From Candidatus Latescibacterota bacterium (GTDB taxonomy: Bacteria; Latescibacterota; UBA2968; GCA-2709665), in contig CBDDDZ010000005.1 in the NCBI GenBank assembly GCA_965226795.1, positions 160,001-224,000 of the forward strand: a stretch of DNA of 64,000 nt, given 5' to 3'. The notes under the pieces are model-generated. The model had not been told where the DNA came from, made no database searches, and saw only the letters and a list, made by a program, of their open reading frames with translations. A program made the translations under genes and the position numbers. Below, in pieces: positions 21,642-58,153 of the stretch (position 1 is the stretch's first letter; every line of letters starts with the position of its first letter).

Positions 21642-21708
21642 GTCCACTTACGGAAGCAGTCGAAACCGATTCTTTAGATGACCCGGATGCCTGCGCATCA
21701 AGGTGTTG

Positions 21709-22668: not shown

Positions 22669-22751
22669 CTTCGATAAGACCGTAATGGGTTCTTTTTCAG
22701 TTCGTGCCCGCCTTAACTTCCCTGGTATGCGGAAGGTCTTGAGATTACGGG

Positions 22752-23690
22752 TTACAAACTCTGATCTGTATTAACTCCTGTCAGTTCGACGTCTATTATA
22801 CGCTTTTTCCCTCTCTTCTCTATATCCCGGACAAGAGAGGGCAGATCGACGGATCGTTTCGAAGAAACATCATACACAACCACGACCGAACCATCGTCTT
22901 TTTCGATTACTTCCGCTACCTTCCACTTTATGCTACCGGAGTTACGGGTCGGGTCTGCTGCTTTTTGCGCTGCATTGACGTTCGTTGCATGCACGGCTAT
23001 CCGGCAATCACAGGAATTCCCGTTGGCATTATCCTCTAATTCGGAGGTTCCGACCGATTTCCTCGGCGAGACGATTCTCCAGCCGGAAACTACAGGAGGT
23101 CGTGCTCCATAGTTGGTTTTCCACACGCCCAGTGTTATGGTTACGAAAGCCAACGATGCGAGGTAGGCCACCGTCGTAAGCTGGGTGCCGGCGGCCAGCC
23201 CGATGCCGATGACCATAAACATGTACACGGCATCCATCGTTGCTTTGAGGGAGATCCGAAAACTGACGGCGGCCACGATGCCCGCCAGGCTGAACGCAAG
23301 GGCAAGACTGCCTTTAACCAGGAAAACAACCAGCGAAATGGCGACGGGCATCATGAGCAGCGTGTGTAAAAAGGACTGACTGTAATTTTTGGGCGAATTC
23401 GTCCACGCATATACCCAGGTAATCGGTAGCGTAACCGCGAAGGCCAGTACCAGAGCGACCACAACCGGAATCGTGTGAGCCGGATCCGCAAGTCGATTTA
23501 TTCCTTCTTTGATGTTTCCGAGAGGAATGCCAGCGTCAATTCCGGAGTCGAGGGATTTTCCTATGAATATGCGCTCCCTCTCCTGGGCGACGTAATGGAG
23601 AATTTGGGGATAGAAGTGAAAAATCGAATTGAGAATCACAAGCCAGGTGATATAGTAAAAGAGCAGACGTACGATGATGTTGTTGAACAT
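22752..23690 (-). CDS. DUF4956-family membrane protein
   Basis: SLALAFSLAGIVAAVSFR...DAVYMFMVIGIGLAAG signature, several TMs, GGAGG RBS. Confidence 0.75.
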   Translation of the reverse strand: MFNNIIVRLLFYYITWLVILNSIFHFYPQILHYVAQERERIFIGKSLDSGIDAGIPLGNIKEGINRLADPAHTIPVVVALVLAFAVTLPITWVYAWTNSPKNYSQSFLHTLLMMPVAISLVVFLVKGSLALAFSLAGIVAAVSFRISLKATMDAVYMFMVIGIGLAAGTQLTTVAYLASLAFVTITLGVWKTNYGARPPVVSGWRIVSPRKSVGTSELEDNANGNSCDCRIAVHATNVNAAQKAADPTRNSGSIKWKVAEVIEKDDGSVVVVYDVSSKRSVDLPSLVRDIEKRGKKRIIDVELTGVNTDQSL

Positions 23691-23708
23691 AGCATCCTCC
23701 TTCACTGG

Positions 23709-23870
23709 CTAGTCCTGTATCCCACATAGAGATTTACGTATTCGTTCGAAATTCCAGAGGATCGATCTTGCGGTTGCAGTCAAGTCGAATGGCCCGATCT
23801 TCTCGTAGTAGCTATCGGCAAAGGTTCGGATTCCGTTCGCGAGTTCCTGGACGGATCCGGAGGAGCCGCT
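23709..23870 (-). mobile_element. IS630-family transposase 3'-end remnant
   Basis: Minus-strand translation SVQELANGIRTFADSYYEKIGPFDLTATARSILWNFERIRKSLCGIQD* resembles IS630 transposase C-termini and ends at a CTAG. Confidence 0.6.
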
Positions 23871-23957
23871 TGAAAACAACATACAATGTTGCCAGGCAAT
23901 ATAAGCTTGTTGAATTGTATGGCATTCGAGCAGAATTCGGGTTCTCCGGCAGGCTCC

Positions 23958-24071
23958 TCGTGTTCTGTACCGGAAATAGATTGCCGAAATTCGGCCGCCG
24001 AGCGAGGGCAACGCAGCGAGACGAGATGAACCGGCGGATGAATGGTGACATATTTCTGGGACGGGACACTA
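23958..24071. mobile_element. IS630-type MITE family B, copy 2
   Basis: TIRs TCGTGTTCTGTACCGGAAATAG / ATATTTCTGGGACGGGACACTA. The terminal CTA is the TAG stop of the Omp85 gene. Confidence 0.7.
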
Positions 24072-26789
24072 AAACATGAAGCCACCACGAAGGTATACGC
24101 CCATCAGATCTTCGCCCTTTGCGACTGCCAGACTCAAGGTCTGACGTCGCTTGAGGTTGGACAACCAGATTCCACCTCCGAAACTGGTGTGCCATTTTGG
24201 TGTATCGACTGAATCTCCATCATAAAACACCCGGCCGGCATCAGCTGTACCGAACAAGCCGAACTCTCCCAGCGTTAATGTCTTGACTCTGGCCAGAACC
24301 AGCCGCAATTCGGAATTCACATACAGGGAGGTATCTCCGGCGAACCGGTTTTTCCTGAAGCCGCGTAAATTGCCGCTGGATATGCCAGTCCCTACAACAC
24401 CGGTCCCGCCCAGAAACGCGCTCTCGTAGAAAGGAAAGGCCCCCCACACCTTCTTGCCACCCGCTCTTACGGCAAGGGTCGGGTTCGTTGGAATCGGAGC
24501 AGTCAGGTAAGTGCTGGCTTCCAAATCTACATTTCCAAAGGTCGATTCCATAGTCCGGATTCCCGGGTAGATGGCTCCGGCAGCCCTGACCCGAATCCCT
24601 CGGGTAGTGTACCCCGGGTTGTTACGCGTATCGTAGCTCATTTCTCCCCGTGCGCCTACCTGACCGAAGGAACCCGTACCGTACAACCGGTGATCGAGAG
24701 AACCGATAAATTTCCCCTTATTGGACATGAGCGGTATATCTGAATACTTTATGATCGGCCCGAAGTCAATGTTTAATTTCGAGCGAAGCGATTCCATGCC
24801 AGCATCGGGCACATCTCCCTTATGCTCTTTCGCTCGAAACTCCAGGGCCGGCGCGAAAACGAAGAGCCTTTGCTCCAGCTTATAGAAGGAAGTCGCCTGC
24901 GAAATCTCCGTATTGTTTCCGAATCCGTTGAACCGCAGCAACTGGATTCCGGAGTACTCGAAGTGGATCCTCACGTCGAAGGCGTGCACCGGCTGGCGAT
25001 AGTTTCCGGTATAGGAAACAAACGGCTTGAGACTCTTGAACCCATTCAGTGCCGCCAGCCCGACGGTAAATTTGTGTTGAGAAGAGAACGGGTTTTTCCG
25101 ATAACCGTAGTAGTGCCGGATATGATGTACTCCCGCATACACGTGCAGATCCGGATTGGTCATTAAAATAGGTAGATTCAAAACCCGCTTGCCCCAATCC
25201 AGTGCATACCTGGCATTCGGCGTATGCGATCCGGCAGGCCGCTTGTAAGAACGCTCGACGATCCCCGCTCCATTGCCCGTGACGAACCGATTCATTCCAC
25301 GTGAATCATAAAACCTGGTTTTTGAGGCACCGGCCAGGGATAAGTTCGTGAGCGTGTCATCCCCACCTCCACCATCGATGCGTACGACAATCCGCCCCCT
25401 GGTTCCGGAAATTTCCGCACGGTCATCTCCCCTCCCGAGGTGTATCCGGATTTCCCGGGTTTCTTTGTGATGAAACGTCCGTTGGAACCAGGGCGCCTTC
25501 CTTTTTCCGCCAGTGCCTTCCATCAGGCCGATACGGACTACGAGATCACCGCTCGGCAGGTGCTCGCACTGGACGTACTCGTCCTGATCTGTTGCCTGGA
25601 TTTCGGCTTCGCGGGTAATTAATTCATAGTATCTGGCTGTAAATTCAGACAAAGTATTCCGCCTCGATTTGAGGGCTTCGGCAAGGGTCTTCCCGACCAT
25701 CTTGTAATACGGAGGCGGCAGCTTCCTCACGGCGTTCTCGATGACCGGGTCGGGTAGACTCGCGCGAAAAGCCGTTACTACCGAATCCCACGCTGCCTTG
25801 TTGAGTTCGACCAGAAATTCGCGGTCTATTTCCCAACCAGTCGTCGTGAGGCCGATTAAACTGGGATACGTCTCCTGAAACTGGATTTGTATGGGAAATA
25901 GTTGCCGCGCTATCGCCATGGCAAGCCCTTCGAAGTGGATAAAGGCCTGGTCGCGATCCTCGGGTATCGGGAGCCAGCTATGACAATTGCCGTCAGGAAA
26001 CCGCGCCCATCTCCACTGACCGTAATGACGGTCCTTGTCGTTGATGAGAAAATCCATCAGTCTCGCTTTTAGAAAGGCACGGGCATTCACGCGGTTGCGG
26101 GGGCTTTTTTCCAGGTGTTTCCTCAGCTTGTCCGTTCCACTGACCTTCCGGGAACCGGCAAAGCCGGGGGAATCGTCCACCCCTTCGGACGGGTGTTCCT
26201 GCAGCGTTCCTATCAGGCCGGCAAACTCCCGTCGGTACACTTTAAGCCTGGGATCGTCCGGTATCACTACGAGCGTATGCCTGGAATGGAGGATACCGGC
26301 GGCCTTCATCAGCGGATCGACCACGAGCGCTCCTGTTGGCAGCATCGCACAGATCAGATCCTGAAGGACTTCGCCCACGAACGTATTCGCGATTTCGTCC
26401 GGGACCCTTCTGGTCGCATCCTTATCCAGCGAACGCACTGTATACCTGCGGCCGTCTTTCCCTGTAAAGTGAAGAGAGATGGATTGTCCGAAGCCGCCGG
26501 TGCGCAGCGGCGTCAGGCCGCCACCTACGGCGTCGAGATCCAGGACTGCAACCTCGATAGGGGTGTTCCAGAGGTCCCGGTAATTGCTGCCGTAGAGCCA
26601 GCGTTTGAATCCGCCGGCTCTGAATCTTTCCCCGGGAATCACCAGATGAGTCCGGGCGCCCTTCGGAGGAATGGATCGCTGAATCATGGACCCCGGAGCC
26701 GGTGAACTCTTTTGAGGTGTGGATTCTGCGGGAACGGAAAAAGCGAGCACTATCAGGAGCAGAACCGGGTTCCGTCTGGAAAACATCAT
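24069..26789 (-). CDS. Omp85/BamA-family outer membrane protein with N-terminal atypical-kinase-like domain
   Basis: Signal peptide; GGFGQS, DKDRHYGQW and PEDRDQAF motifs; Omp85 lid motif LRGF.KNRFAGD, YDTRN, terminal Phe (GFMF). Confidence 0.75.
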   Translation of the reverse strand: MMFSRRNPVLLLIVLAFSVPAESTPQKSSPAPGSMIQRSIPPKGARTHLVIPGERFRAGGFKRWLYGSNYRDLWNTPIEVAVLDLDAVGGGLTPLRTGGFGQSISLHFTGKDGRRYTVRSLDKDATRRVPDEIANTFVGEVLQDLICAMLPTGALVVDPLMKAAGILHSRHTLVVIPDDPRLKVYRREFAGLIGTLQEHPSEGVDDSPGFAGSRKVSGTDKLRKHLEKSPRNRVNARAFLKARLMDFLINDKDRHYGQWRWARFPDGNCHSWLPIPEDRDQAFIHFEGLAMAIARQLFPIQIQFQETYPSLIGLTTTGWEIDREFLVELNKAAWDSVVTAFRASLPDPVIENAVRKLPPPYYKMVGKTLAEALKSRRNTLSEFTARYYELITREAEIQATDQDEYVQCEHLPSGDLVVRIGLMEGTGGKRKAPWFQRTFHHKETREIRIHLGRGDDRAEISGTRGRIVVRIDGGGGDDTLTNLSLAGASKTRFYDSRGMNRFVTGNGAGIVERSYKRPAGSHTPNARYALDWGKRVLNLPILMTNPDLHVYAGVHHIRHYYGYRKNPFSSQHKFTVGLAALNGFKSLKPFVSYTGNYRQPVHAFDVRIHFEYSGIQLLRFNGFGNNTEISQATSFYKLEQRLFVFAPALEFRAKEHKGDVPDAGMESLRSKLNIDFGPIIKYSDIPLMSNKGKFIGSLDHRLYGTGSFGQVGARGEMSYDTRNNPGYTTRGIRVRAAGAIYPGIRTMESTFGNVDLEASTYLTAPIPTNPTLAVRAGGKKVWGAFPFYESAFLGGTGVVGTGISSGNLRGFRKNRFAGDTSLYVNSELRLVLARVKTLTLGEFGLFGTADAGRVFYDGDSVDTPKWHTSFGGGIWLSNLKRRQTLSLAVAKGEDLMGVYLRGGFMF

Positions 26790-26892
26790 TGTTGTCCTTA
26801 TCGCTTCCGGAGATCTTGAGAACCTGAAATCGGACAGACGAATTCGCTTCTGCAACACTTCAACATGCAACTATCAGTAGTTATCCTGCACA

Positions 26893-29142
26893 TCAAAACC
26901 CGAATCCGATTGCTGCATTAATCTTGATATCCTTTTTTTGATTGCTCACGATGTCGACGCGAATAGGGCCCAAAAGCGATGTGTAGACATAACCCCCGAT
27001 TCCAAAACCGTGGATAGGGGTATATGCCCGCTCGGGATTCGAGTTCATGTCGTATAGACCGCCCTGATAGAAAATCCTGATACCACTGCGTGGCAGGGAT
27101 TCCCAGAATTTAACGTGCTTCGATATAGATATGCCGACCGATGCGAACCTGGAAACCCTCAATTCATCGCGTTTGAGACCGACCACCGGCAGTGCCGCGC
27201 TACTGAAGTGTCCTGCACCACCCAATGTAAAGTATTCAAAAACCGGTGCAGGCAGTGTCACATAGCCTCCGTAGGACCAGAGGCCAACACTCAATCGCGA
27301 ATGGGGACTGGCGAAGTACGCGAGTTGCGTTTGAATTTGCTTATGTGAAAACGTCCGATGAATCCATTTTGCCCGTGTTTGAAAATAGATGCCCCGCTTT
27401 GGCAATAGCGCATCGTCTCGTGTGTCAACACCTGCAGACAACCAGAAGCCGGGCAGATATTCGGACGCATCGCCTATCGAACGGGCCGCATAGCGGATAC
27501 GGGCATGCTCCACCTGGTACCCAACCTCGAAACCACCCCAACTGTGGAACAATGCCTGCATTCCAAGTCGTGCGCGAAAACGTCTTTCCTCGTACCCGCC
27601 CTCGCGTTGCCGATCTCGAAAATACAACCGCTCCTGATCCCAACCCTGAACATCCCCCAGCAGACCAAGGCGCCTGGAAGACCGGAAAATCAGGACCATT
27701 TCGCCGAAATTCAAATTGCCCACCAGGCCGCGTAAATAGAGCTCTGATATGCGGCCAAGTGTATTCTGATGCGCAATCTCGCCCAGTACCGAAACCCGGT
27801 AATCGTTGTTGTAATGAAGCCCCACTTTCAACTCGCTGGGGGGGTTTTCGAGCACGTGAAAGACCAATTCGGTCTGGCCTTCATTATAGTTCACATGGTA
27901 ATCCACGGTCTGAAACAGTCCAGTCGAATACAACCGGCCGGATTCGCGTTCCAGTTCCTGAAACGATATAGGCTTATTGACGAACTTTTCCAGCCGCAGC
28001 CTGAATAACGCTTTTGAATAACGTTTTAGACCGTCTATCCGAACCCGGGAAATTACAATATCCGGCGGTATATCCGCCCAGGTCGTGACATCGAACTCAT
28101 CTGGTAATTTGGATGTTCTCGGCTTTCCGACGCGTTTTTGAAGCCCAAGCGTCCGCAATGCGCTCCAGATCGCATCCATATGTTTTTCGGTTTCACGCTC
28201 GCCGATCGGAATCAGGGTGTAAGACCGATTGAAATCGCTTGCATCGAATTTTTCCAAGTCGGGCAATATCAACATGTTGGAGCGTTTTCGGTTGGCGATT
28301 TTTCTTTCTTCGATTCGAAAACTGATAGCTTGATCGATGACGTCGATAATATCCTCAACTTCGTGTTTTTGAGTACGCAGGGGCGTGGCGCAATCCACGG
28401 CAATAACAAAATCAGCGCCGGCGTCCAATGCGACATCCACAGGCAGATTATTTACAATGCCGCCGTCTACAAGATGGGTATGTTCCGTACTCATTGGCGC
28501 GAACACCCCCGGAACAGAAATACTGGCCCTGATCGCAGCACCGAGAGAGCCATTATCGAGTACGACCTGTTCTCCCGAAAGAATATCTGTTGCAATTGCG
28601 CGGAAAGGCGTTGGAAGTCGATCAAAATCGTTTTGCGCCCTATAGGTCGCGCCGAGGGTCAATTGATTGAGAAAATGATGAATCTTCTGTCCGGCAAAAA
28701 TCCCATACGGCAACTTAAGTTTCAGTTCTTCGAGGTGCAATGCAAGCATCTGTCGATCTGCCATCGGTTTTCTATTCATATTCGACAGACGACGGTCGGG
28801 GCTATTTGTGGTTATTTCCCACCAGTCTGTATCTACGATTATGCGTTCAAGGTTATCAACAGAATAGCCGGCAGCGTACAATCCTCCAACCAGAGCGCCA
28901 TAGCTCACCCCCACAACCAGATCGATGGGTACCCCCTCGCGCTCGAGTACGCGCAACACGCCGATATGTGCGCCTCCACGCGCGCCGCCTCCGCTGAGCA
29001 CGAGCGCGACACGGGGTTTCTGTTTTGCAAGAGCAGGAAGCGTGCTTAACATGGCAAAAACGAAACACGATATCAACACGCTCAGGACGAATGGGCGCTG
29101 AACTATCCCGCACTTTGTCGCGTGTATATTTCCGCCCGTCAT
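26893..29142 (-). CDS. Patatin-POTRA-Omp85 protein (PlpD/type Vd-like phospholipase)
   Basis: GGGARG, GVSYG (GxSxG), DGG; POTRA-like RLYSTGLFQTV...VFHVLEN; VDTRD; terminal GFGF. Confidence 0.88.
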   Translation of the reverse strand: MTGGNIHATKCGIVQRPFVLSVLISCFVFAMLSTLPALAKQKPRVALVLSGGGARGGAHIGVLRVLEREGVPIDLVVGVSYGALVGGLYAAGYSVDNLERIIVDTDWWEITTNSPDRRLSNMNRKPMADRQMLALHLEELKLKLPYGIFAGQKIHHFLNQLTLGATYRAQNDFDRLPTPFRAIATDILSGEQVVLDNGSLGAAIRASISVPGVFAPMSTEHTHLVDGGIVNNLPVDVALDAGADFVIAVDCATPLRTQKHEVEDIIDVIDQAISFRIEERKIANRKRSNMLILPDLEKFDASDFNRSYTLIPIGERETEKHMDAIWSALRTLGLQKRVGKPRTSKLPDEFDVTTWADIPPDIVISRVRIDGLKRYSKALFRLRLEKFVNKPISFQELERESGRLYSTGLFQTVDYHVNYNEGQTELVFHVLENPPSELKVGLHYNNDYRVSVLGEIAHQNTLGRISELYLRGLVGNLNFGEMVLIFRSSRRLGLLGDVQGWDQERLYFRDRQREGGYEERRFRARLGMQALFHSWGGFEVGYQVEHARIRYAARSIGDASEYLPGFWLSAGVDTRDDALLPKRGIYFQTRAKWIHRTFSHKQIQTQLAYFASPHSRLSVGLWSYGGYVTLPAPVFEYFTLGGAGHFSSAALPVVGLKRDELRVSRFASVGISISKHVKFWESLPRSGIRIFYQGGLYDMNSNPERAYTPIHGFGIGGYVYTSLLGPIRVDIVSNQKKDIKINAAIGFGF

Positions 29143-30093
29143 CCGGTTTCCTGCATTGGATGGATTCGACCGCTTTTTGGGTCACACATCGCAACAACCG
29201 ATCTGAATGATTCAGCGCGCAATTATGTGGCGTGGGCCTTCAGTGTGTGGGCGTGCCACCGGACAACGGCCGCTCCAGCCAACCTGCCGGGCATCGGACG
29301 CAGAAAGGCAGGAAACGACCGGGTTGGGGACGTTGGCAACGAGACCTTCAAAGCCTTTGATTCAGACCGTCGTAAGGAGGACTTGGCTGGCAAGGAGAAC
29401 GAAACGTGATAGATCGCTGAGCGGGCCTCCGGAAAAGGCAAAGTGAGAGCCGGGCGACCGGCATGCACCTGATACCTCCGGAGAAGATTCGGAAACTGCC
29501 CAGGATGTCGGGGATTGCCTCTGTCTTCGTTGAAACGGACGAGGCTCCAATGTTTACTGGATACATCAATCCATTGAAGGAAACTGTATCCGCAACCATG
29601 GGAGCCTATGACGAAGAAGGTACCATCGAATTTCCGTGAAGTCAAGTTGAACAGGAACGCCGGTTCAACCACTGGTAAGGTCCCTGAGGAATAGGCAAGA
29701 GACGTTGTCGCTCGCGTGCTCAGAGGTATTGCCACGCGCCCCTACGCGCGCTACATTACTCTCCAATTCCAAGAATGGAGTTGACTTATCAATATAGGCA
29801 CAGGGGTTGGCGGAATTCGGGTGGCTGCCACCCATTCCCCTTGCTTGGAAAGCCGCCCGACTGATAACGTACCTTGTCGAACGCAAGCGCCAGGCAAATA
29901 TCATGCGGGGTGAACCGGGTGCCTTTATCTGCCACTCCGCCACGGTTCAGGCGCACAAAAGCTGTCGCGTAAACGATAAACGAAGTCCGACATAATTAGC
30001 AGCAGATAGAATCACGTAAAAACGTCTATGATGTCAAGGCTGAAAGCTTGTCCTATTGTGCAAGATTTGCCCTGGATTCCACTTTCTTGCGAT

Positions 30094-46164: not shown

Positions 46165-49100
46165 ATGTCTGGCCGGTTATTTACGGACTATTTCCTCACA
46201 GATGGCATCAAGGACGCCGACGAATGGAGATCCTCAGTTGAGGATGCGGAGGAGTTTGCCACATTCAGGGAAGGCGTTAGCCAGCGTTACGAGGCCCTTT
46301 GCCGTTTCGAGAATCCAAACGAAGCGGTTACGGAGCAGGAACTCATCCGCCCGGTTCTACAGTTACTGGGATGGGTTGACTACCTGCCCCAGCAGGGCTC
46401 CGCAGGCAAAGAGGATATTCCCGACCATCTGCTTTTGGCCGATAGCGAATCCAAGGATCGCGCCACAGCTGAGCGTAATCCAAAACACCGATTCCGGCAC
46501 GCAACCGTGGTTCAGGAAAGCAAGCGCTTCGGTCTTCCACTTGACAAACGCCAGGAAGACGACGATGTCCGCGTAAGAACCCCGCACGGCCAAATCCTCA
46601 GATACCTATTAACAGCCGATATCGAGTCAGAGGCAAACATCCGGTGGGGTGTCCTGACCAATGGCAAGGTTTGGCGTCTCTACGATCATCGTGCACGGCC
46701 CCGAGCGACCGGCTACTTTGAAGCCGATTTGGAAGTCCTGCTTCAGTCTGAAAAAGAAAACGACCTCCGCATCTTTCATCTGTTGTTCCACCGCGAGTCC
46801 TACGTTAAACAAGCCGGCGCCGCGACGACGTTCCTCGAAACGGCCCTTGAAGAGGGGCGTCGTTATGAGGAAAGGGTCGCGCAGGATCTCTCCGGGGTTG
46901 TATTTGAACGCGTGTTTCCCGGTCTGGTTGAGGCGCTGGCGGAGAAATCGGGCGAACGTCTCCCAGATTGTCGGGATGCCGCGCTGGTCTTTCTCTATCG
47001 TGTGCTCTTCGTGCTCTACGCGGAGGACAGAGGCCTGCTACCTGTCCACGATTCGCGTTACGACGACTACGGTATTCGCAAGCGTGTGCGGTACGATATA
47101 GCGAACAGAATGAAGGACGACGACACTTTCTCCGGAATGGCCACCAACTATTACGACCGCCTTGTCAATCTTTTCAAAATTATCGACAGCGGCGATCCGT
47201 CCATCGGGCTCCCTGCCTACAACGGAGGGCTATTCGCATCAGAAGCCGCACCAATGTTGGAACGCGTGCGCCTTTCAGACGCGGAAATCGCACAAATCAT
47301 TTACGATTTGAGCCATGCGAAGGATCCACAGAATCAGCGCCGCTTTGTAAACTACCGTGACATGTCGGTGCAACAACTGGGCTCGATCTACGAGAGGCTG
47401 CTGGAGCGCGAGCCAGTCCGGGACGAAGCCGGCAAGATAATCGTTCGACCGAATCCTTATGCGCGAAAAGACAGCGGGAGTTTTTATACGCCGCAGGAAC
47501 TGGTGGATCTTATTGTGGACCGGACCCTGAAACCGCTGGTTGAAGAGCGTCTCAAAGCGTTCGAGGAGAAAGCCGACGCGCTAAAAAGCGACCGCAGGCC
47601 AAAGTCGGAACGACGGGCCGAGCTTGAGCGGGTCGATCCGGCGGTATCGGTGCTTGATCTTAAGGTGCTGGATCCGGCCATGGGAAGCGGTCATTTCCTG
47701 GTCACTGCGGTCGATTTCTTATCGGACTACGTCGCTGAGTTGATCGAATACGTCCCTGCGGTTCCATCTTGGCTGGATGGCGGCTACGTGTCGCCGCTGG
47801 AGGGACGCGTGGAGGCGATCCGCGGGGAAATCATCCGACGGTCCAGGGAATCGAACTGGGTACTCGATGAAGCCCAGCTTACCGACCAGGCAATTATCCG
47901 ACGCATGGTGCTCAAACGCTGCATTTATGGTGTAGACAAGAACCCATTGACCGTTGAGTTGGCCAAGGTGTCGCTGTGGCTGCACAGCTTCACGGTAGGG
48001 GCGCCGCTCTCCTTCCTAGACCATCACCTGCGCTGCGGCGACTCGCTGGTCGGCCTGCGCGTACGAGCGTCTATCAAAGACCTGGAAGAGATCGCTCACC
48101 TGTTCGTCGGCAGTGCCATACAGGGCGCGGAAACCGCCACCAACGGGATGCAGCTCATCGAGGAAATGTCGGACTCGGACGTGTCCGAGGTACGGGAGTC
48201 CGCCGTGCTGTTTCAGGGAGTGGAGGAGACGACAGCGGATCTCCGCGGTTTGCTCGACTTCCTTTGCGGTTGGCGCTGGTTGACGGCGGGAATGAAGAAG
48301 AAAGAGTACAAAACTTTCGAGACGCCGCTGGTTATGACGCTCAGCCAGCGGGCGGCGACCGCATTCAAACTTCTGGCTCACGGACCGCGGCAGGTGGATG
48401 ACGACCATCGCGATCCCGATGACGCCACGTTCGCGCGTTTTTCGGAGTTATGGCACGACGTGCGAGCCATCGCCGACCGGGAGCGTTTCCTGCACTGGGA
48501 GGTGGCCTTTCCAGGTGTGTGGCGCAATTGGCAAAATACCCGACCGCAAGGTGGTTTCGACGCGGTGATCGGCAATCCGCCGTGGGACCGCATCAAGCTG
48601 CAGGAGGTGGAGTGGTTTTCGACGCGCGACCCCGAACTCGCTCACGCGCCGACGGCGGCCGCACGGCGGACGGGCATCCAGCGATTGCGCGACCGCGGAT
48701 CGCCACTTACGGCCGAGTTCGACGCGGCCAGGACGCGGTCGGAAAGCCTTGCCCGGATGGTTCGATCCTATGGCGATTACCCGTTACTGGGCGGCGGCGA
48801 CGTCAATCTGTATTCGGCTTTCGTCGAACGGGCTATGAGCCTCATCAAGCCTGACGGCATAGTCGGCCTTCTGACGCCGTCGGGAATCTATAGCGACAAG
48901 ACCGCGGCCCGCTTTTTCAAGTCGGTGTCCACGAGCGGACGGGTAGGTGGCCTGTTTGATTTTGAGAACAAGAAAATTTTCTTCAAGGACGTTCACGGTT
49001 CGTTCAAATTTTGCGCCCTCATATTGGGCGGAGAGGAGCGACAGTTCAATCAGACCGAATGCGCCTTCTTCCTTCACGACACGGAAACGATCCAGGATGA

Positions 49101-50202
49101 GGACCGCTGCTTTCCATTGACGCCCGTGGACTTCGCCCGAGTGAACCCGAATACGGGCACTGCTCCGGTGTTCCGCCAGCGCAGTGACGCCGAAATTACC
49201 CTTCGAATTTACGAACGGCATCCAGTGTTAGTGGATCGATCGGGAGGTGAGGAAAAGAGTGCTTGGCCGTTGAAGTACACCACAATGTTTCATATGGCGA
49301 ACGACTCGCACCTCTTCCGCACCGCCGAGCAGCTCGATTCGGAAGGATTCTATCGCGCTGCGAACAACCAGTGGAAACGGGGCGAGCAGCTGTTCGCTCC
49401 GCTGTACGAGGGCAAAATGGTCCAGGCGTTCGACCACCGCGCCGCCGATATCACGGTAAATCAGCAGAATCTATTTCGACCCGGTCAGCAAGAGACAATC
49501 GCAGAGGCAGCGAAGAAGGAAGCGGATCGATTGCCAATACCCCGGTACTATGTACAACTCGATGAAACCCGATGGGTTTCAAGTAAAGATTGGACAATTT
49601 CATTCAAAAATATCACAGCTTCTACCAATGTGCGAACGATGATTGCCGCAGTCATACCGAGAGTGGGTGCTGGGCATTCTCTCAATCTGCTTCCGATATC
49701 CAGTTTTGTAGACAACTCGGCACAAATTGCGTGTTCTGTAGTCGCAAACCTGAATTCCATAGTCTTTGACTTCGTTTCTCGACAAAAGGTACCCGGAAAC
49801 AACTTCACGTTGTATTTACTTGAACAAATCCCCGTAATCGCATCTGACGACTACGACCGCAAATTCGGCGATACGTCCGCCCGGGACCTCGTGAGGGACC
49901 ACGTGCTTCGCCTCACCTACACAGCCCATGACATGGCACCTTTCGCCCGTGACCTCGACTATGTAGGTCCGCCTTTTGTCTGGAATGACGAGGAACGCCG
50001 GCACCTGCGCGCACGCCTCGATGCGCTCTACTTCCATCTCTACGGTCTTACGCGTGACGACGCTGGGTACATCCTTGACACGTTTCCGATTGTCCATCGA
50101 GAAGACGAAAAAGCCTTCGGTCGTTACCGCACCCGCGAGATGGTTTTGGCCTACATGAACGCGCTCGCAGCAGGGGATACGGAGACGGTGGTTGATGTGT
50201 AG
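46165..50202 (+). CDS. Type IIG (Eco57I-like) fused restriction endonuclease / N6-adenine methyltransferase
   Basis: N-terminal PD...ESK nuclease, LTNG..W.LY, YNGGLF, LGSIYERLL, GSFYTP, DPAMGSGHFL, GNPPW, C-terminal TRD. Confidence 0.9.
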   Translation: MSGRLFTDYFLTDGIKDADEWRSSVEDAEEFATFREGVSQRYEALCRFENPNEAVTEQELIRPVLQLLGWVDYLPQQGSAGKEDIPDHLLLADSESKDRATAERNPKHRFRHATVVQESKRFGLPLDKRQEDDDVRVRTPHGQILRYLLTADIESEANIRWGVLTNGKVWRLYDHRARPRATGYFEADLEVLLQSEKENDLRIFHLLFHRESYVKQAGAATTFLETALEEGRRYEERVAQDLSGVVFERVFPGLVEALAEKSGERLPDCRDAALVFLYRVLFVLYAEDRGLLPVHDSRYDDYGIRKRVRYDIANRMKDDDTFSGMATNYYDRLVNLFKIIDSGDPSIGLPAYNGGLFASEAAPMLERVRLSDAEIAQIIYDLSHAKDPQNQRRFVNYRDMSVQQLGSIYERLLEREPVRDEAGKIIVRPNPYARKDSGSFYTPQELVDLIVDRTLKPLVEERLKAFEEKADALKSDRRPKSERRAELERVDPAVSVLDLKVLDPAMGSGHFLVTAVDFLSDYVAELIEYVPAVPSWLDGGYVSPLEGRVEAIRGEIIRRSRESNWVLDEAQLTDQAIIRRMVLKRCIYGVDKNPLTVELAKVSLWLHSFTVGAPLSFLDHHLRCGDSLVGLRVRASIKDLEEIAHLFVGSAIQGAETATNGMQLIEEMSDSDVSEVRESAVLFQGVEETTADLRGLLDFLCGWRWLTAGMKKKEYKTFETPLVMTLSQRAATAFKLLAHGPRQVDDDHRDPDDATFARFSELWHDVRAIADRERFLHWEVAFPGVWRNWQNTRPQGGFDAVIGNPPWDRIKLQEVEWFSTRDPELAHAPTAAARRTGIQRLRDRGSPLTAEFDAARTRSESLARMVRSYGDYPLLGGGDVNLYSAFVERAMSLIKPDGIVGLLTPSGIYSDKTAARFFKSVSTSGRVGGLFDFENKKIFFKDVHGSFKFCALILGGEERQFNQTECAFFLHDTETIQDEDRCFPLTPVDFARVNPNTGTAPVFRQRSDAEITLRIYERHPVLVDRSGGEEKSAWPLKYTTMFHMANDSHLFRTAEQLDSEGFYRAANNQWKRGEQLFAPLYEGKMVQAFDHRAADITVNQQNLFRPGQQETIAEAAKKEADRLPIPRYYVQLDETRWVSSKDWTISFKNITASTNVRTMIAAVIPRVGAGHSLNLLPISSFVDNSAQIACSVVANLNSIVFDFVSRQKVPGNNFTLYLLEQIPVIASDDYDRKFGDTSARDLVRDHVLRLTYTAHDMAPFARDLDYVGPPFVWNDEERRHLRARLDALYFHLYGLTRDDAGYILDTFPIVHREDEKAFGRYRTREMVLAYMNALAAGDTETVVDV

Positions 50203-50239
50203 GCACTACACGCCGCCTGTGCCTACAGACAAGGATAAC

Positions 50240-50268
50240 TTGCAATTTACAAGGAATTTAGATATAAT
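50240..50268 (+). promoter_or_regulatory. Near-consensus sigma70 promoter
   Basis: TTGCAA-17 nt-TATAAT. Confidence 0.7.
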
Positions 50269-50323
50269 TTGAGCAACTCAGGAGTGGGTATTTTCTTACG
50301 TCTGGATGAAGGAAAAATCCGCA

Positions 50324-50524
50324 ATGGATGACTACTTGAGATTGCTATAAACGGCCAAGGACGAGTATCAGCAATACGTTGAAATCAGCGAACTGTATGA
50401 GTTACTGGTTAAAAACGATGAGGTTCAGGTGAAATGCCAGCCTCCCAGTCCAGAACGTCCTTTGACAACGAATGAGATTTCAATCAGCCAGATAGATCGC
50501 TTGTCACATGACTGTCAATTTTGA
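50324..50524 (+). pseudogene. Small (~66-codon) gene with early in-frame TAA
   Basis: GAAGGA RBS; MDDYLRLL*TAKDEYQQYVEISELYELLVKNDEVQVKCQPPSPERPLTTNEIS... Confidence 0.45.
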
Positions 50525-50839
50525 ATTGGTACCTCCCTTGAAGCCCACCACAAACGATAGAAGAACAATTCGGATTACGCATAAACAGCGAATCCCTATT
50601 CCAACATCCCCGCCCCTGAGTCAATAACTGCCTCCCGCGATTTGTATCGCATCTGAGTTAAATCCTCTTCCACATTCAGTGTTGTAAATCTCGTTTCAGA
50701 CAATTACTCCGCCTCGAAATATTCGAAATTTCCAGGTCTTCCGCTTTCGCAGTCACGACCTCGTGCGTTTCTACGAGACCACCATGGCATCAGGGAATCG
50801 TGGATAAAGTAATTGCCCGGATAATTTGATTTCTCATTC

Positions 50840-50868
50840 TTGACATATTGCAGGTATTAAGATACGTT
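50840..50868 (+). promoter_or_regulatory. Sigma70-type promoter of the HNH-TPR-PIN operon
   Basis: TTGACA-17 nt-TACGTT. Confidence 0.55.
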
Positions 50869-50950
50869 TGACAGGGCAGTTTCTCTGGATGAGGCAGCAC
50901 TGACAGAATAGGACGGATTCTCGGGCAGTTTTTCCAGGTGTTTTTTCGGT

Positions 50951-53900
50951 ATGAGCAAGGGCAAGCCAACGCGCAATTATTCAGAAAAGACAATTAAAGT
51001 CATTTTCGGTTTGAGCGGAAACCAATGCGCGCATCCTGATTGCGAGAGCGCTGTCATTGAGCCGCCGACGCCGCAGTCTGACGCTCATGTCGTGGCTCAA
51101 ATCTGCCACATATATGCCATTAGTGAAGACGGTCCGCGAGGAAAGGCCGGGCTAACGGTCCAAGAACTCAATTCTCCAAATAACCTGATCTTACTTTGTC
51201 CGAATCACCATACTGTGGTAGACGGCCAACATGAAACATATCCAGCCGAAATGCTCAAACAGTGGAAGAAGGAACATGAAGCTAAATTGATCAAGAATCG
51301 GTTGCATGCAGGCTCGGATGGCGTTGTGTGGGATGTGTCGTCTCAACCCGATTTTCCAACGCATCTGATCGATCAAGAAATCAAGAAGAAGACCGATCTG
51401 CTTCGCAAATCCCGATTTTTCGCGGAATTCGACAGGAATGGATTTTCATTGACATTTGCGAAAAAACTCGCAGGAGGCGAACTCTCGGGCGGTACCAGTG
51501 AGGTACGGAGCGAGGCGTTAGGATGGTGCGTCCGATTATTGTCAGATGAACATCTAGAAAAAGCAGAATCGTACCTCGAACAGGCGAGAGAAATAGGAAC
51601 CTGCCCGGAAGTTTACATAGCAGCCTCGTTTATTTCTTCGCGAAAGGGCGACAAGGCGGCTGCTCTGCAGAGTTTGGCCGCCATTGACTCGCCCATGTCC
51701 CGTTCCGCAGCACTGATGATTTCCGAATATCACGACGGCCCTCAAGGCGCAGTTGACTGGTTGGAAGCGGCCGACATTGACGCTACGAAGTTGGATGCTG
51801 ACGGTAAACGATTCTTATTGGCGTGTTATTTTGAACTCGCCGATTGGGAAGCAGCACGGAGATTAATTGATGTGCTAACTGATGACGATTTATGCAATTC
51901 TCCGACCCTTTTTCATATGACGGCGGTAACCCATCTTATAACGGCGGTACCAAACGAACTCCGCTCCAGCATCCTTTACCAACCACCTTTCGAAGTCAAA
52001 AGCTTTCCACTTGCTTCAGACTCTTCGTCGATAAAAGCCCTTCGAGTTGCCCGAGAATGCTTTGTAAGAGCCGTAGAGTTTGCGCATCAACTAAACTGTC
52101 CATTTGCAGCAAAACTGGACGATGAATACGCACTTTGGCTTGAACTCGTGGATCCCGATGAGTTCGCCCGTGGGAGAAAGCGACTAAAAACGGAACTTCG
52201 CAATGCAGAAAATTCCCTAAGTCTCGTTCGCTTCGGTTTTTAATTTGGAGTTAATCTCGACTTCGCAGCAATAGAACGGGAGATCGATCGTCAAACCGCC
52301 CTTTACGGAGGTCTAACTTACGACACTGCGATCGCTCGCCTTGCCCTTGTCTTCAGCCAGCAGACGCCGAAAGATGCCTCGACCTATATCGAGCGGCACC
52401 AGAATTCGCTTTCTGATTACGCAAACAAGGAATATCTGCATTTTGTGCGAATCGAACTGTTGGCGCGTGCCGGTCGCCTTGATGAAGCACGTGTTCGCCT
52501 AGAAACTCTCGAGAATGAGGAACTCTCAGAACCGAACAAGAGCCACCTTCGGAGAATCATCGCCGAAGCGGGCGGAGCCGATCCAATTGAACGTCGAAAG
52601 GTTCGGTTTAGAGAGACGAATTCAGTCCGAGATTTGTCGATACTTGTTGACCAACTCGAAGCTCAACACGAATGGGAGCAACTTTGCGAACATGGAGAAA
52701 TCTTGTTCAAGCGAACCAACCGGTTGTCTGATGCCGAACGGTTGGCAATCGCGTTACACAATACAAGGAAAAATGACCGCCTGGTCGAATTCCTCCAATC
52801 CAATGAGACGATCATACCACAATCCAAGCAACTCCAGCAACTCCGTTGTTGGTCCTTGTACCACGAGGGCGCGCTGCTACAAGCCCGTACCGAAATGGCG
52901 AAACTTGGTGATAACTCGGATGACGGGAACTATCGCAGCCTCAAGATCAATCTTGCAATCTCTATGGGTGACTGGAACTCGGTTTTGGCGTTTGTAACCA
53001 ACGAATGCCAAAAAAAAGAGCGGAGAAACGCACCGGAACTGTTAGGGACAGCACAACTGGCCCTTCGCTTGGATTCTGGTAACCAGGCAAAAGAGTTGTT
53101 ATTTGCAGCGGTAGAAAAGGGAAACGACGATCCCAAGGTTTTAGCGACAGCATACCATATTGCAACTACAGCCGGTTGGGAGGGCCAAGAGGTCTCTCGT
53201 TGGATTCAAAAAGCCGCTGCTCTCTCAGGGGACGATGGGCCAATTCAGAAAATCACGGTGAGAGAATTTCTGGATCGGAAACCGGAATGGGAACGAAGAG
53301 AATCTGAAATCTCCCGGGGGCTGATGTGTGGAGACCTTCCGTTGTTTCTTGCTGCTCAACTGCGAAACATATCTCTTGGCAATATGGTGCTTTATTCGGC
53401 TCTTGCGAATCTGGATGAAAGCGATCCGAGACGGAGAAACGTGATTCCTGCATATAGTGGACAACGGCCACCGACGACGCTTGAAACGGGTGGACGTATC
53501 GGAATAGATGCAACCGCATTGCTAACCTTAAGCTTGTTGAAGGTGCTCGAAGAAGCATTAGATGCTTTTGAATCGGTCCATATACCACATTCAACTCTTG
53601 GTTGGCTTTTTGAGGAAAAACAAAGACTTACATTTCATCAGCCAAGCAGGATCAGGGATGCGCATCAGGTCAGTGATCTTGTGTTTGCTCGTACGATGGA
53701 GGTCCTATCACCAAACGCCGTCCCGGATAGCGAACTATCGGAGCTAGTTGGACATGATCTGGCGCAGTTTATAGCGGAAGCGAAAACGATGAGAGACGCA
53801 GATGTTTCTCAACGTGTTGTTGTTAGGCCGGCTCCGGTTTATCGAATCGCTTCTTTGTTGGAAGAAGAAGCCGACCTGACGCCGCATGAAGGCGTATTGA

Positions 53901-55069
53901 GTAGCTGCCAATCAATTATAGATAAGTCGCAGAAGCAGGGCCAGATTACTAAGAATGAAGCCGAAAGGGCCTGTGCTTTTCTCGGGCTTCAGGAGAAACC
54001 CTGGCCCAATCAGCCACGGATCACTGACGGAGCGATTCTTTACTTGGATGATTTGGCCGTGAGATATTTCCTCCATCTTGGCATATTGAGAAAATTAAAT
54101 GCTGCTGGTTTCAGATTGATTATTTCCCAAAGCGTGGTATCCGAAGCGAAACAGTACATCTGCTACGAAAGGATCGCTGGCGAAGCCAAGAATGACATCG
54201 AACGTATACGTTCTGCACTTAATGCGCGGATAGAGTCAGGTAAGGTCAAGGTAAGTAGACGGACGAACTCCGCGAGAGATTCAGAAGACCAGGCAGCATT
54301 CGAACATCCTACCGCAGGAGCCTTGAACCTGGCAAACGAATGTGCTGCGATTATCGTGGACGACAGATACCTCCACCAACATGCCAATGTCGTTGATCAC
54401 GATGTAAAGACGCCGATAGTCTCAACACTGGATCTTGTTGATGCGTTGGTTGCCGGAGGTGTCATATCGACTAAAGATCGACTCGCATACAAAACTCAAC
54501 TTCGCCAGGCCGGATATTTCTTTGTGCAGGTAATCGAAGATGAACTGGCACATCATCTTGAGGCGTCCACGGTGGAGAACGGAGAAATCATTGAGACGGC
54601 CGAACTTAAGGCTATCCGGGAAAACATACTTCAGGTTCGGATGAGTAACTGGCTTCAGCTTCCGAAAGAAGAATACTGGCTTCAGACGATGTTAGGAGTG
54701 TCCCACCGAGTGCTGGCAGGAATGTGGAGAGCCAATGCTGACTTCGAACAGGTGCGAGCCCGCTCGGAATGGATCCTATGTGTGACAGACGTGCGTGGCT
54801 GGGCACACACAGTTGGCATAGAACGTGGTGAAAACATAGTCAAGTCGAAATTCGGCGAAAGTGTCCTGTCGTTGATTTCACTCGGGATCGAACTGCCCCC
54901 AAAGGTCAGAGATGAATTCCAAAAGTGGGTTGAAGAGAGGGTCTTGGCTCCGCTTAAAGAGAATAATCCCGACGTGTTTCGTTACCTGCTTGAATCGTAC
55001 AAAGGACATATTTCGCACGTGGTGGAAAAATGCATGAAGGAGATGAAGAACGATGACCATGGATCTTGA
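50951..55069 (+). pseudogene. ~1370-aa HNH endonuclease - TPR/helical repeat - PIN-like protein interrupted by one in-frame TAA (52241-52243)
   Basis: HNH: SGNQCAHPDC, ICHI, GPRG, NLILLCPNHH. ORFs 50951 and 52445 share a frame with an open linker (RFGF*FGVNLDFAAIERE...). PIN-like IGIDATALL, LYLDD, IIVDDRY. Confidence 0.75.
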
Positions 55070-56981
55070 TGCCAAGACAGTATTTGCAGCGCAATGTTTG
55101 AATTTCGTGCCGCCACTAATACGTGAGACTCTCCTTGAAGATGGGGACTTTCGGGAGGAGTATAATGTACCGACGGACAACCGGATAGCGTTTGGTAAAT
55201 CCGGTGTAGATTTCCAGCGTTACGATTTGTTCAATACGATTCGAGATGTTCTGGCAAACGCATCAATACAGCAAGTAGCGGATGTCAATGGCAAGTTGTG
55301 GACCCTTAAGGACATAAGTGGAGAAGGGGAACTCCCGAATCTTGAAATGAGTCGCAGCGAACAGTGTGTTCCCCTTCCGGCATTCGCTTCATTGTCCCCA
55401 GACAAAAGTGTACGCTTGCGTCTCCTCAAGGAGGCGACTTCTGAAACCAATTTACCGCGACACGTCTCGTCCTTTTGGCGTGACATTCTTGAGAATCGCG
55501 CTCTCGAAGACGACGAAGTCGATGCGTTCTATAGTGATTTGAGGGATACGCCGACCGCCAAGGCGCGAGACATACGCACGGATATACTGGCCGGACAGAG
55601 TACCGCATCTTCTCTTGTCCCGAGTTCACGCCAATATTACGAAAGGCTTGTGGGCGTATATGATGGTAGCGCTTCCATCCGCGATTATTCCGCGGGCAAT
55701 GGTAGCGCGTTCTTAATTCAACTGGCCGAATGGCGCCCCTATGACGGCTTCTTGTTTAGTCTCTTTCTGTCATCACATTCCTTGCTAACTGACGAAATCA
55801 ATGTCGACCGTATAAGCCGTGAAGACCTTGTGAGAGCCTACGGTTTCTTAGCGAAACACGGGGATCGGTTCTCGCAGTTGGGGGCCATCGAGGTCGGATT
55901 GCGGATTCTTCCATCAAATCCTGAGATCGAACCTGCGCTCAGTTGTCTCATTGAGCAGATTCGAGACGACGACATTGAAGGGCCGGCTAGCTGTTTCAAG
56001 CTCTTATCGGCGATGTTTCGTCTTGTCGATGGAGAGTTGTCCAGGATTCGGCTGTTTTACTCGGAACCTCCTTTCTATCGAAGATTGGCGGCCTTGTCAC
56101 ACGCCGCATTGATTCAACGCCAACTTGCGGATTTAGACATAAATGTTGATAAATTCGCGGAGTGGGCGTATAGCGATCGAGGAGAGCCGCATTATCTACA
56201 GTCCCTTGTAGATATGCGTGTGGAACCGCATTGGGATCCCGAACTTACGGGGGTCCATCAGGCGAAGGCCTATTTCTGCGGTCGTATCATGATCTCAGGT
56301 AGAAAATATGCGCAGAATATAAAGGGCAGCCCCATCTATGAGCTTGTATTTGGTGACGATGCGAGCAGTCTGCCGTCTATTGGTGATTTCCCCAATTCAT
56401 GGTTGCGAGGGCCGTTGGAAGGAACCCATGAACCGGATCGCATCTTGCCTTCGGAGGTGGCGGACGCGATTGAGAAACAGCTCAGCACGAGAGAAGTAAG
56501 GCCATCGTCGTTCTTCGCGCTTGTGAATTTCGTCTCGACTCATCGCATCAGTGCAAATCATGCGCAGTTGGCGTCAGATGCGTTAAAACGTGCCGGCTAT
56601 CGTCTTCAGGACGTCGAATGCAGATCCCAGCTTGTTACTATATTGAATAGGTTAGCAACAGTTGCTGCCGTCACGCGAAGCCTAGGGCTCGCGGACGCCG
56701 TGCGAATTCTTGCACGTAGATATAGGCGTGACCCCGAGTACAGGTTATCCATTCCAGAGGTCGTGAAGCTTTGTCTCACAGCTGCCGCAAGCCGTTCCGA
56801 TTTAGCCGAGTGGATAGAATTCGTCGGCGAATGGCTAACAGAACTTGCATTTGAAGATTTGAAAAGTGAGGAAGGTCAGGTGTTTTACTCATCCTTGGAT
56901 TGGCTTTGCCATGCCGTTCCTGAGCTATGGGTTTCCTGCGGTAGAGCCCACGCAGCCTTGATGGCGTTTAATGCAAAATGA
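55053..56981 (+). CDS. 642-aa hypothetical, mostly helical protein coupled to the HNH-TPR-PIN gene
   Basis: Long intact ORF overlapping the upstream stop, AGGAG upstream; no recognisable motif. Confidence 0.8.
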   Translation: MTMDLDAKTVFAAQCLNFVPPLIRETLLEDGDFREEYNVPTDNRIAFGKSGVDFQRYDLFNTIRDVLANASIQQVADVNGKLWTLKDISGEGELPNLEMSRSEQCVPLPAFASLSPDKSVRLRLLKEATSETNLPRHVSSFWRDILENRALEDDEVDAFYSDLRDTPTAKARDIRTDILAGQSTASSLVPSSRQYYERLVGVYDGSASIRDYSAGNGSAFLIQLAEWRPYDGFLFSLFLSSHSLLTDEINVDRISREDLVRAYGFLAKHGDRFSQLGAIEVGLRILPSNPEIEPALSCLIEQIRDDDIEGPASCFKLLSAMFRLVDGELSRIRLFYSEPPFYRRLAALSHAALIQRQLADLDINVDKFAEWAYSDRGEPHYLQSLVDMRVEPHWDPELTGVHQAKAYFCGRIMISGRKYAQNIKGSPIYELVFGDDASSLPSIGDFPNSWLRGPLEGTHEPDRILPSEVADAIEKQLSTREVRPSSFFALVNFVSTHRISANHAQLASDALKRAGYRLQDVECRSQLVTILNRLATVAAVTRSLGLADAVRILARRYRRDPEYRLSIPEVVKLCLTAAASRSDLAEWIEFVGEWLTELAFEDLKSEEGQVFYSSLDWLCHAVPELWVSCGRAHAALMAFNAK

Positions 56982-57183
56982 GGGTTTTCCAGATCGGTAA
57001 AGTTCAATACCAGATGCAGGATCCTTTGTAAGGTTTTCCCTTGCCATTGCCCTGCTAATCAATTGTCGAGGTCACTAAAAGACACTGTATTTCGCCGTGA
57101 TGTCGTTATTCTTGGAGTCCAGAAAATAGTCGTGGATGACCAGAGAGAACCTTAAATTAGGGACACGACAGGAGGCGTTGCGA

Positions 57184-57817
57184 GTGATCGGAGAATGGAG
57201 AGTTCGCCATTATCCGCGATGTACCCATCATGTTTTTCTATCGCATTGTGCTGAAAATAGACGTACTCGTGGTGCACCCTGTGTACACTGGCTTGCAGAA
57301 AGACCAATATGTACCGTGGCTTGACCGCCACCACTACCCGAGAGGCCAGGGTGCCTTTGCGGCGCTTAGAGAGGCAATTATACGGTGGCGGCACGTCGTG
57401 TATTTCGTTACTGAGGAGTTTCTATCGCAGGGGCGAGGATGGAATAGTGTGGAAACCGCCTATTCGGAGCTTCTTCAGGCAAATCTAATACATCCGTCCC
57501 TCGTATTGTGCAATGTCCAATTACCCCTATTCTTTCTACCTCGAAGTTATGAGACCCTCGAGAGATCGGCGTGGGGATCTTTCGTTCAATCCGGGCGGTT
57601 CTATCCCCCGGGAAAAGTGGACGGTGGCGCGGTGAATTGGGCTCACCAAGAAATCACGGCCTTCATTAAACAGGAAGAAAATCGAGGGCATTCCCTGGCG
57701 ATTCAAATCGAGAAGGATCCATCCTTCCAGCGGATTCTCGAGGAAGAAAAGAACCTGCTATCAAGGGTGATGTGTGCATACCCTGTCGCCGATAAGATTG
57801 CGAAAGTGACGAACTAA
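57184..57817 (+). pseudogene. TIR-domain protein, frameshifted near 57260-57266
   Basis: AGGAGG RBS. Frame A gives HHVFLSHCAENR; the +1 frame continues LVVHPVY..LQ...VPWLD...LREAI..WRHVVYFVT...GWNSVE (TIR strands and catalytic Glu position). Confidence 0.65.
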
Positions 57818-57829
57818 AGGAGGTTTTCG

Positions 57830-58153
57830 ATGCCCATAGACGACCAATACGTTAAGAACTTACCGGAAGTCTACCGCGATGTACTTTCAACTTTTCCGAG
57901 TTTCAATTCGACTCGCATTGCCGGCGACGGCCTGGCCTACCAATCGTTGTATTCGGCTTTGGCGGATGAAAAGAAGGGATACACCCTCGGTCAAATAAAG
58001 AAGGCATGCGAAAACATGGCTGAGGTGGGTCTTATGGTGATTAAACATAGGATATTTGCTTGCCCGACACCAAAAGGGGAAGAGTTGATTTCCGCAATAA
58101 CGGGCCGCACGACCCCTGTCTCGGACGTTCCCCCCATCGAAGCCCCGCCATAG
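57830..58153 (+). CDS. 107-aa hypothetical protein, possible winged-helix fold
   Basis: AGGAGG RBS 12 bp after the TIR stop; YTLGQIKKACENMAEVGLMVIK...PTPKGEELI resembles wHTH recognition helix and wing. Confidence 0.75.
   Translation: MPIDDQYVKNLPEVYRDVLSTFPSFNSTRIAGDGLAYQSLYSALADEKKGYTLGQIKKACENMAEVGLMVIKHRIFACPTPKGEELISAITGRTTPVSDVPPIEAPP

Follow-up and report, generated by a model that had tools for sequence, protein, structure and literature searches.

Locus and Features of the A–B Module

The DNA analyzed here is a stretch of 64,000 nucleotides from contig CBDDDZ010000005.1 of a Candidatus Latescibacterota bacterium (hereafter, the window), and its subject is a two-gene candidate defense module on the plus strand. 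Subunit A occupies a single frame at 50951–55069; its 1,372 codons are interrupted once, by an in-frame TAA. Subunit B is an intact 642-residue open reading frame (ORF) that begins at 55053 and shares 17 nucleotides with the end of subunit A. The pair sits in a GC-poor block 3′ of a type IIG restriction-modification (R-M) gene; the GC content is 49% at 50203–58153, compared with 60% elsewhere in the window and a genome-wide 58%. The features of the module, with the evidence for each in parentheses, are as follows; TPR denotes tetratricopeptide repeat and HTH, helix-turn-helix.

50951–55069, plus strand: subunit A, HNH, TPR solenoid, HTH, PIN1, PIN2 and helical docking domain (Pfam, model)
50972–51295, plus strand: Cap5-type Zn-binding HNH effector (C26, C31, H53, N78, C83, H86, H87) in a swappable N-terminal slot (Pfam, PADLOC, closest structures)
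51353–53260, plus strand: TPR-like helical solenoid, approximately residues 135–770 (model of residues 499–1372 and fold search; residues 135–498 probably helical, judging from sequence)
52241–52243, plus strand: TAA in frame at codon 431, where the intact record P0498 has Gln (frame, protein record, alignment)
53261–53467, plus strand: HTH_upst_double_PIN (PF24407), residues 771–839 (Pfam, E 3.5e-19)
53498–53950, plus strand: PIN1, degenerate, with D853, E889 and D975 kept and VVxxxPV at the place of PIN2's DD (alignment)
54041–54388, plus strand: PIN2, with the full acidic set D1033, E1073, D1137 and D1138 (Pfam, alignment)
54608–55045, plus strand: C-terminal helical domain of A (residues 1220–1365), predicted docking site for subunit B (complex prediction)
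55053–56981, plus strand: subunit B, 642 residues, with N-terminal helices, a small beta domain and an alpha-solenoid (model, homologue comparison)
55182–55376, plus strand: beta domain of B (residues 44–108), PF24388 "Permuted_GreAB-C" in Pfam, GreA kinship unconfirmed (Pfam, model)

An earlier interpretation made from the letters alone (the sequence-only reading) had described a frame of about 1370 codons in AT-richer DNA downstream of a type IIG R-M gene, with an N-terminal HNH nuclease, a TPR-like middle and C-terminal PIN-like motifs, followed by an intact, overlapping, motif-less 642-residue ORF. Most of this description stands. The C-terminal region, however, holds two PIN domains rather than one, and the 642-residue ORF, although intact and overlapping, matches PF24388 at residues 49–95.

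Subunits A and B as Halves of One Protein

Subunit B corresponds to the C-terminal third of fused homologues. It matches 1,044 clusters of 50% identity at E ≤ 0.001. Matches number 141 among proteins of 1,125–3,210 residues and 856 among those of B-like length, the split form being commoner near this copy. All 120 long homologues among the matches listed (1,152–2,475 residues) carry more than 500 residues of A and then B in one chain, and 50 of these 120 start from the HNH domain onward. Fused forms account for just 4 of the best 120 matches to the C-terminal half of A. Two fused homologues, P0181 and P0237, have an extra C-terminal domain (Schlafen AlbA_2 and AAA_14-DUF4143, respectively), perhaps through read-through into the following gene.

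Gene order gives the same picture. Elsewhere, 17 loci have a substantial match to B, and in all of them A lies directly 5′ of B, 15 times as a split pair and twice fused (L004 and L006). These 17 distinct loci are L001–L007 and L043–L052, with a duplicate of L007 counted once and two remnants, L084 (B residues 277–631 only, without A) and L085 (a 27-residue end), left out. Five split junctions (L001, L002, L003, L005 and L007) show a 4-nucleotide ATGA/GTGA overlap. As a linkage proxy only, the longest contigs of equal size common to the A and B match lists number 32, versus 0.45 expected by chance. The 642-residue family is thus conserved beside the large gene, as had been suggested for a dedicated partner of uncharacterized kind; "dedicated" holds, but what had been taken for a separate partner is A's own C-terminal third.

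Fusion and fission have recurred within the family. Of 379 proteins, 15 were too short to use; the tree built from the B parts of the other 364, of which 230 are stand-alone and 134 fused, requires 37 changes between the two states, compared with a mean of 109 when labels are shuffled. Fused clades of 22, 19, 12, 9 and 8 members have support above 0.99, and fused and split forms interleave. Lone fused tips may be sequence errors, and for most stand-alone B parts the upstream gene is unseen. Because the root is a midpoint, no direction of change is claimed.

Co-folding, which had been proposed as a check, places the two chains together. The prediction for B with A residues 1018–1368 scores 0.66 and none of three controls exceeds 0.00, with at least 96% contact agreement between runs and a partner predicted local distance difference test (pLDDT) value of at least 75. 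The mark for such scores is reached by 116 of 157 solved pairs and by 2 of 215 mismatched ones; these rates apply just roughly when alignments are one's own, and a passing score is expected anyway for halves of a split gene. In the predicted complex, the first (7–37) and last (619–641) helices of B both pack onto A residues 1220–1365. No PIN2 residue is named in the interface, which is not proof of no contact; the modeled part of A, 1018–1368, excludes the HNH, TPR and PIN1. Interface residues are barely more conserved than average (0.66 versus 0.59 in B; 0.66 versus 0.64 in A), and searches of the PDB found no similar complex. Since both terminal helices of B pack on the tail of A, the split form would rebuild the fused one, with B as a structural subunit. 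Taken together, the homologous sequences argue that A and B are very probably the two halves of one protein of approximately 2,000 residues, and the two are predicted to reassemble as a heterodimer.

Domains of Subunit A

The N-terminus of A is an HNH domain. The Pfam HNH_2 match at residues 48–88 exceeds the cut-off, and PADLOC HNH-effector models match residues 8–115 (best E 4e-37). C26, C31, H53, N78, C83, H86 and H87 are near-invariant across approximately 50 HNH-bearing fused homologues. The nearest solved sequences include the SAVED-domain HNH proteins 7rwm, 8ysq and 7rwk, PDB entries of the Cap5 type.

The AlphaFold model of residues 499–1372 (pLDDT 73; predicted template modeling score, pTM, 0.49) begins with TPRs, which run to about residue 770; an HTH region of low prediction quality follows, then two alpha/beta units and finally a tail of helices. 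Its first ~270 residues match TPR superhelices (9qhb: Z 10.8, root-mean-square deviation 7.8, 258 residues aligned); the Pfam TPR match is weak (E 7e-4, below the cut-off).

PF20698 (PIN-TPR-GreABC) matches A in two stretches (E 2e-22; 80 bits against a cut-off of 27.8). PIN2 retains all four acidic positions in most homologues (D1033 in 222/233, E1073 in 201/235, D1137 in 235/235 and D1138 in 232/235). PIN1, without the DD motif, keeps D853 in 223/235, E889 in 235/235 and D975 in 222/233. A profile comparison of the two PIN domains is borderline (E 0.017). In NCBIfam, neither A nor B has a match above the cut-off.

Subunit B

The model of B is confident (pLDDT 90, pTM 0.88) and shows three short helices, the beta domain at residues 44–108 and then the alpha-solenoid. 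PF24388 falls on residues 49–95 with 25 bits, under the 27-bit cut-off, in one scan and with 29.3 bits, over it, in another; it is listed for 118 of 120 B homologues. The beta domain is the least conserved portion of the subunit (0.49 versus 0.61). No recognizable catalytic motif is present in B. Foldseek returned no match at E ≤ 0.001, the remaining matches being generic helical-repeat proteins, and a second fold search gave a best Z of 9.7, within the range common for helical proteins; both whole-model searches are dominated by the solenoid. The B profile found nothing under E 0.1 among PDB sequences, and the ESM Atlas held no match at 0.9 for B and none usable for residues 30–118.

The distribution of B is patchy. 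It occurs in 12 of 168 genomes of the phylum, a count that takes in remnants and the genome studied here; 14 genomes of the same genus all lack it. Among plasmids there are 3 records, two of them a same-length Agrobacterium plasmid, and among 50,697 phage records there are no matches.

State of This Copy

The sequence-only reading proposed repairing the TAA at codon 431, which is probably not a fixed lesion. Record P0498, an intact protein of 1,372 residues from a 7,065-base contig, is the third member of a cluster with the window's own fragments and matches the window translation everywhere except for R at 364 and Q at 431. Both are the family majority, R364 in 196 of 218 homologues and Q431 in 146 of 222. 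Run X1 contains 98% of the window's words, and its 7,065-base contig spans 50200–57224 gapless, with four other letters. The read-contig difference table holds the 40 best-supported differences, with 52241 outside it, and the codon was judged from the protein record. Because P0498 is intact and the X1 contig gapless, the likeliest source of the TAA is a mistake in assembly or a minor allele. The A–B pair is real and linked, and it is probably intact.

The alternative is that the TAA is genuine and this copy a decaying pseudogene in an island on its way out. The assembly does show the TAA, H replaces the near-invariant N1142, the adjoining TIR gene is frameshifted (run X1 concurs), ORF relics lie 5′ of subunit A, and broken copies occur at L005, L007 and L084. 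Against these stand the full-length P0498, whose two differing residues both agree with the majority, and the uninterrupted X1 contig, so that we regard decay as unlikely.

Effector Slot and Neighborhood

The N-terminal slot occupied here by HNH is variable. According to Pfam, homologues carry TIR, SIR2, PNP, calcineurin-like phosphoesterase, SMEK or alpha/beta-hydrolase domains in it, and a restriction-endonuclease (REase)-like motif is found there in 13 of 235, close relatives among them.

A defense-island setting had been proposed and is borne out in 11 of the 17 loci (L001, L004, L006, L007, L044–L046, L048, L049, L051 and L052), where R-M, bacteriophage exclusion (BREX), MksE or SIR2 genes lie near; this count comes from a survey of some of the ORFs and has no background rate behind it.

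At L044, L045, L046 and L049, the pair sits in the slot between hsdS and hsdR of a type I R-M operon, and at L085 the same slot holds an unrelated 243-residue gene and the 27-residue B remnant. This slot is a cassette hotspot. A fused member without HNH (L006:828-21887) lies between terminase-small-subunit/primase-like genes and a BREX locus. R-M genes of type III or type I adjoin five canonical-type TPR-PIN genes of the same phylum (L038–L042).

Comparison with Known Systems

TPR-GreA/B-C-PIN (TGP) proteins combine these three elements with 13 alternative effectors, including HNH, and are mostly standalone genes (Kaur et al. 2021, PMC8195603). In the model proposed there, they bind RNA polymerase, the PIN domain cleaves and the effector acts as a backup (PMC8195603). 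The suggested link of our pair to this class is upheld by what the two have in common: a variable N-terminal effector (HNH, TIR, SIR2, PNPase or REase) on a constant core (PMC8195603), TPR repeats and a PF20698-type PIN domain. There are also differences. Subunit A has no detectable GreA/B-C between TPR and PIN and has two PIN domains behind an HTH, and this clade adds a module of approximately 640 residues, usually as a separate gene, whereas TGPs are mostly standalone (PMC8195603). The TPR, HTH (771–839) and PIN1 (from ~850) are contiguous in A, with no strand predicted between them, in a region where pLDDT is low.

Profile searches separate the two groups as well. The A and B profiles have no match at E < 1e-3 to five canonical TGPs of the same phylum (L038–L042). 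A GreA-C profile built from 31 genomes finds its domain in 3 of these 5 (E 1e-4 to 0.014) and no domain in A or B, and profile-profile tests are negative as well; the template is shallow (effective number of sequences 2.2) and missed 2 of the 5 controls. Because the A and B profiles miss canonical TGPs and the GreA-C profile finds nothing in A or B, the clade is not filed as canonical TGP; it is likely a sister variant that works like one. In the Figure 2 table of PMC8195603, entries for "PIN+GreAB" and "permuted" are both missing, as are the six carrier names searched; supplementary file 1 likewise lacks "PIN+GreAB" and has one TPR+PIN+PIN entry.

The only tested TGP protein found in the literature consulted is Agp, a canonical, 1,094-residue member from the Bab/Agp system. 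It triggers abortive infection against T5, and GreA/B-C mutants lose defense (bioRxiv 10.1101/2024.11.07.622273). Our system resembles Bab/Agp in having two genes, one of TGP type. It differs in the role of the second gene, which in Bab/Agp encodes an amyloid-activated effector (bioRxiv 10.1101/2024.11.07.622273); in our pair, A itself carries the effector and the second gene encodes the protein's C-terminal third.

With the SAVED-HNH effectors of cyclic-oligonucleotide-based antiphage signaling systems (CBASS; 7rwm, 7rwk and 8ysq), A shares the Zn-binding HNH subfamily, but its system has neither a SAVED domain nor a cyclase. Activation of the HNH must come from the TPR/PIN scaffold.

The sequence-only reading had matched the pair to no named system, and PADLOC 2.0 agrees: it has 0 families for B and for A 499–1372, the core of the clade, and only generic HNH matches at A 3–121. 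PIN systems described in the DefensePredictor paper are of other kinds (PMC13092281). PF24407 and PF24388 match A and B, respectively, throughout the clade, which means that the architecture is already cataloged in Pfam, although the two families together cover approximately 125 of 2,000 residues. No paper on either family was found, nor one on the clade in a search that left subscription journals, bioRxiv supplements and file 13 of PMC8195603 outside. The Pfam domains and the published parent class, TGP, are already on record; within that frame the clade is a variant with an HTH and two PIN domains and a fusible module of ~640 residues. It is a large, mobile candidate defense clade, with about a thousand 50%-identity clusters matching B, and current annotation labels its members hypothetical proteins.

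Proposed Mechanism and Alternatives

We consider it fairly probable that the split protein is a phage sensor whose assembly switches on the HNH DNase, killing the infected cell. Its components are of unequal strength: a role against invaders is quite likely, and abortive infection driven by the effector is marginally favored. The ligand of the helical solenoids of A and B would be a phage protein or a host complex altered by the phage, and its binding may gather several copies. HNH, TIR, SIR2, PNP and REase effectors generally require oligomerization, which is why gathering is proposed to activate the N-terminal effector; the HNH DNase would then kill the cell. PIN2, perhaps aided by PIN1, may cut RNA or form part of the switch. 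Should a clade that lacks canonical GreA/B-C prove defensive, such receptors must have some trigger besides docking on RNA polymerase. Because split and fused versions occur naturally with many effectors, the coupling of sensor to effector is directly testable.

Several observations weigh against this explanation. Because no GreA/B-C was detected in A or B, the RNA-polymerase-sensing model is not directly transferable, and no assayed member of the clade was found in the literature searched. The PIN mutant of Agp is also unstable, and no stand-alone activity was observed for Agp (bioRxiv 10.1101/2024.11.07.622273). The PIN folds of A are read from Pfam matches and from predicted secondary structure. 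TPR matches take up the fold searches of residues 499–1372, which are not informative on the PINs, and the model has low confidence near the HTH and where PIN1 begins. Residue 1142 is H in this copy and N in 227 of 235 homologues. Fewer than 70 residues precede the core in 34 of 235 homologues, leaving no obvious effector, although some of these may have wrong starts. Finally, six of the 17 loci lack a clear defense neighbor among the scanned ORFs (five have none and L002 is ambiguous), and, of the 11 that have one, five are type I R-M loci that are related to each other and come from a single phylum.

A different mechanism would be the canonical TGP mechanism rearranged, with the beta domain of B as a true permuted GreA/B-C that sits on RNA polymerase transcribing phage DNA, PIN2 cutting the transcript and HNH as a backup. 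The Pfam name of PF24388 points this way, and B homologues with as little as 29% identity still match the family (E 4e-10). The model shows a distinct beta domain at B 44–108, the N-terminus of PIN1 aligns with a canonical TGP PIN (E 1.3e-3), and the loss of defense in the Agp GreA/B-C mutants (bioRxiv 10.1101/2024.11.07.622273) fits as well. However, the GreA-C profile, which recovers 3 of 5 canonical controls, and the profile-profile tests are silent on A and B, and being the least conserved part of B is odd for a domain that binds a conserved host enzyme; it would fit a variable phage sensor. We regard this rearrangement as unlikely.

A bolder form of the sensor explanation, which we regard as doubtful, treats the protein as a solenoid machine, two-subunit or fused, within a widespread class of bacterial immune receptors. 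B would close on the A tail as a sensor arm whose fast-evolving beta domain reads the phage ligand, the degenerate PIN would complete the site of its neighbor, and the receptor would license any of many exchangeable death effectors, with neither an NTPase nor a second messenger involved. The eukaryotic counterpart would be the composite nuclease SMG5-SMG6 of mRNA decay, in which an inactive PIN gives the aspartate that completes the active PIN's site (PMC12923823). The likeness, an analogy only, is that degenerate PIN1 retains near-invariant acidic residues.

In a type II toxin-antitoxin-like arrangement, A would be a constitutive nuclease toxin and B an inhibitor freed or degraded upon infection. 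Tight translational coupling, the predicted direct A–B binding, and the PIN (VapC-like) and HNH domains of A are in keeping with this proposal. However, fusion to A is seen in 134 of the 364 B sequences in the tree, and release of B therefore cannot be a family-wide requirement; moreover, modeled B contacts the C-terminal helices of A, with no PIN2 residue listed. We judge this arrangement quite improbable.

Least convincing is an R-M accessory or anti-plasmid surveillance nuclease not involved in phage-triggered suicide: although the pair recurs beside or inside type I R-M operons and adjoins MksE, the hsdS–hsdR slot holds an unrelated gene at L085, as for a cassette hotspot, no R-M neighbor was detected at L003, L005, L043, L047 or L050, and the TIR, SIR2 and PNP effectors in the slot are cell-killing types.

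Flanking Sequences

Two neighboring genes lie outside the module.

46165–50202, plus strand: type IIG R-M gene (Pfam, PADLOC)
57184–57817, plus strand: TIR gene, frameshifted, not a conserved part of the module (read contigs, cluster comparison)

The sequence-only reading had placed a promoter of the module's own at 50840. The consensus scan did not call TTGACA-17-TACGTT there, so this candidate is unsupported and was rejected. The scan gave 2 sites, versus 1.4 expected, and the lone plus-strand site is 50240–50268. That site lies in the spacer at 50203–50950, which also has ORF relics broken by stops. In run X3, one contig links position 50386 to 50972, indicating that related strains vary in this spacer.

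The downstream TIR gene is present, as had been noticed, but one extra base near 57269 cuts its HVFLSH strand off from the remainder. The base is present in the run X1 contig and absent from the X3, X4 and X7 contigs. Members of the TIR cluster have 194–263 residues, and among the nine members listed the motif is in frame in all but the window's own. Immediately 3′ is an ORF of 107 residues (57830–58153) that has no credible match in Pfam, PADLOC or NCBIfam and may be a TIR partner. Elsewhere in the window, a second block of lower GC content (51–55%), with flattened GC skew, occurs at 21000–30000.

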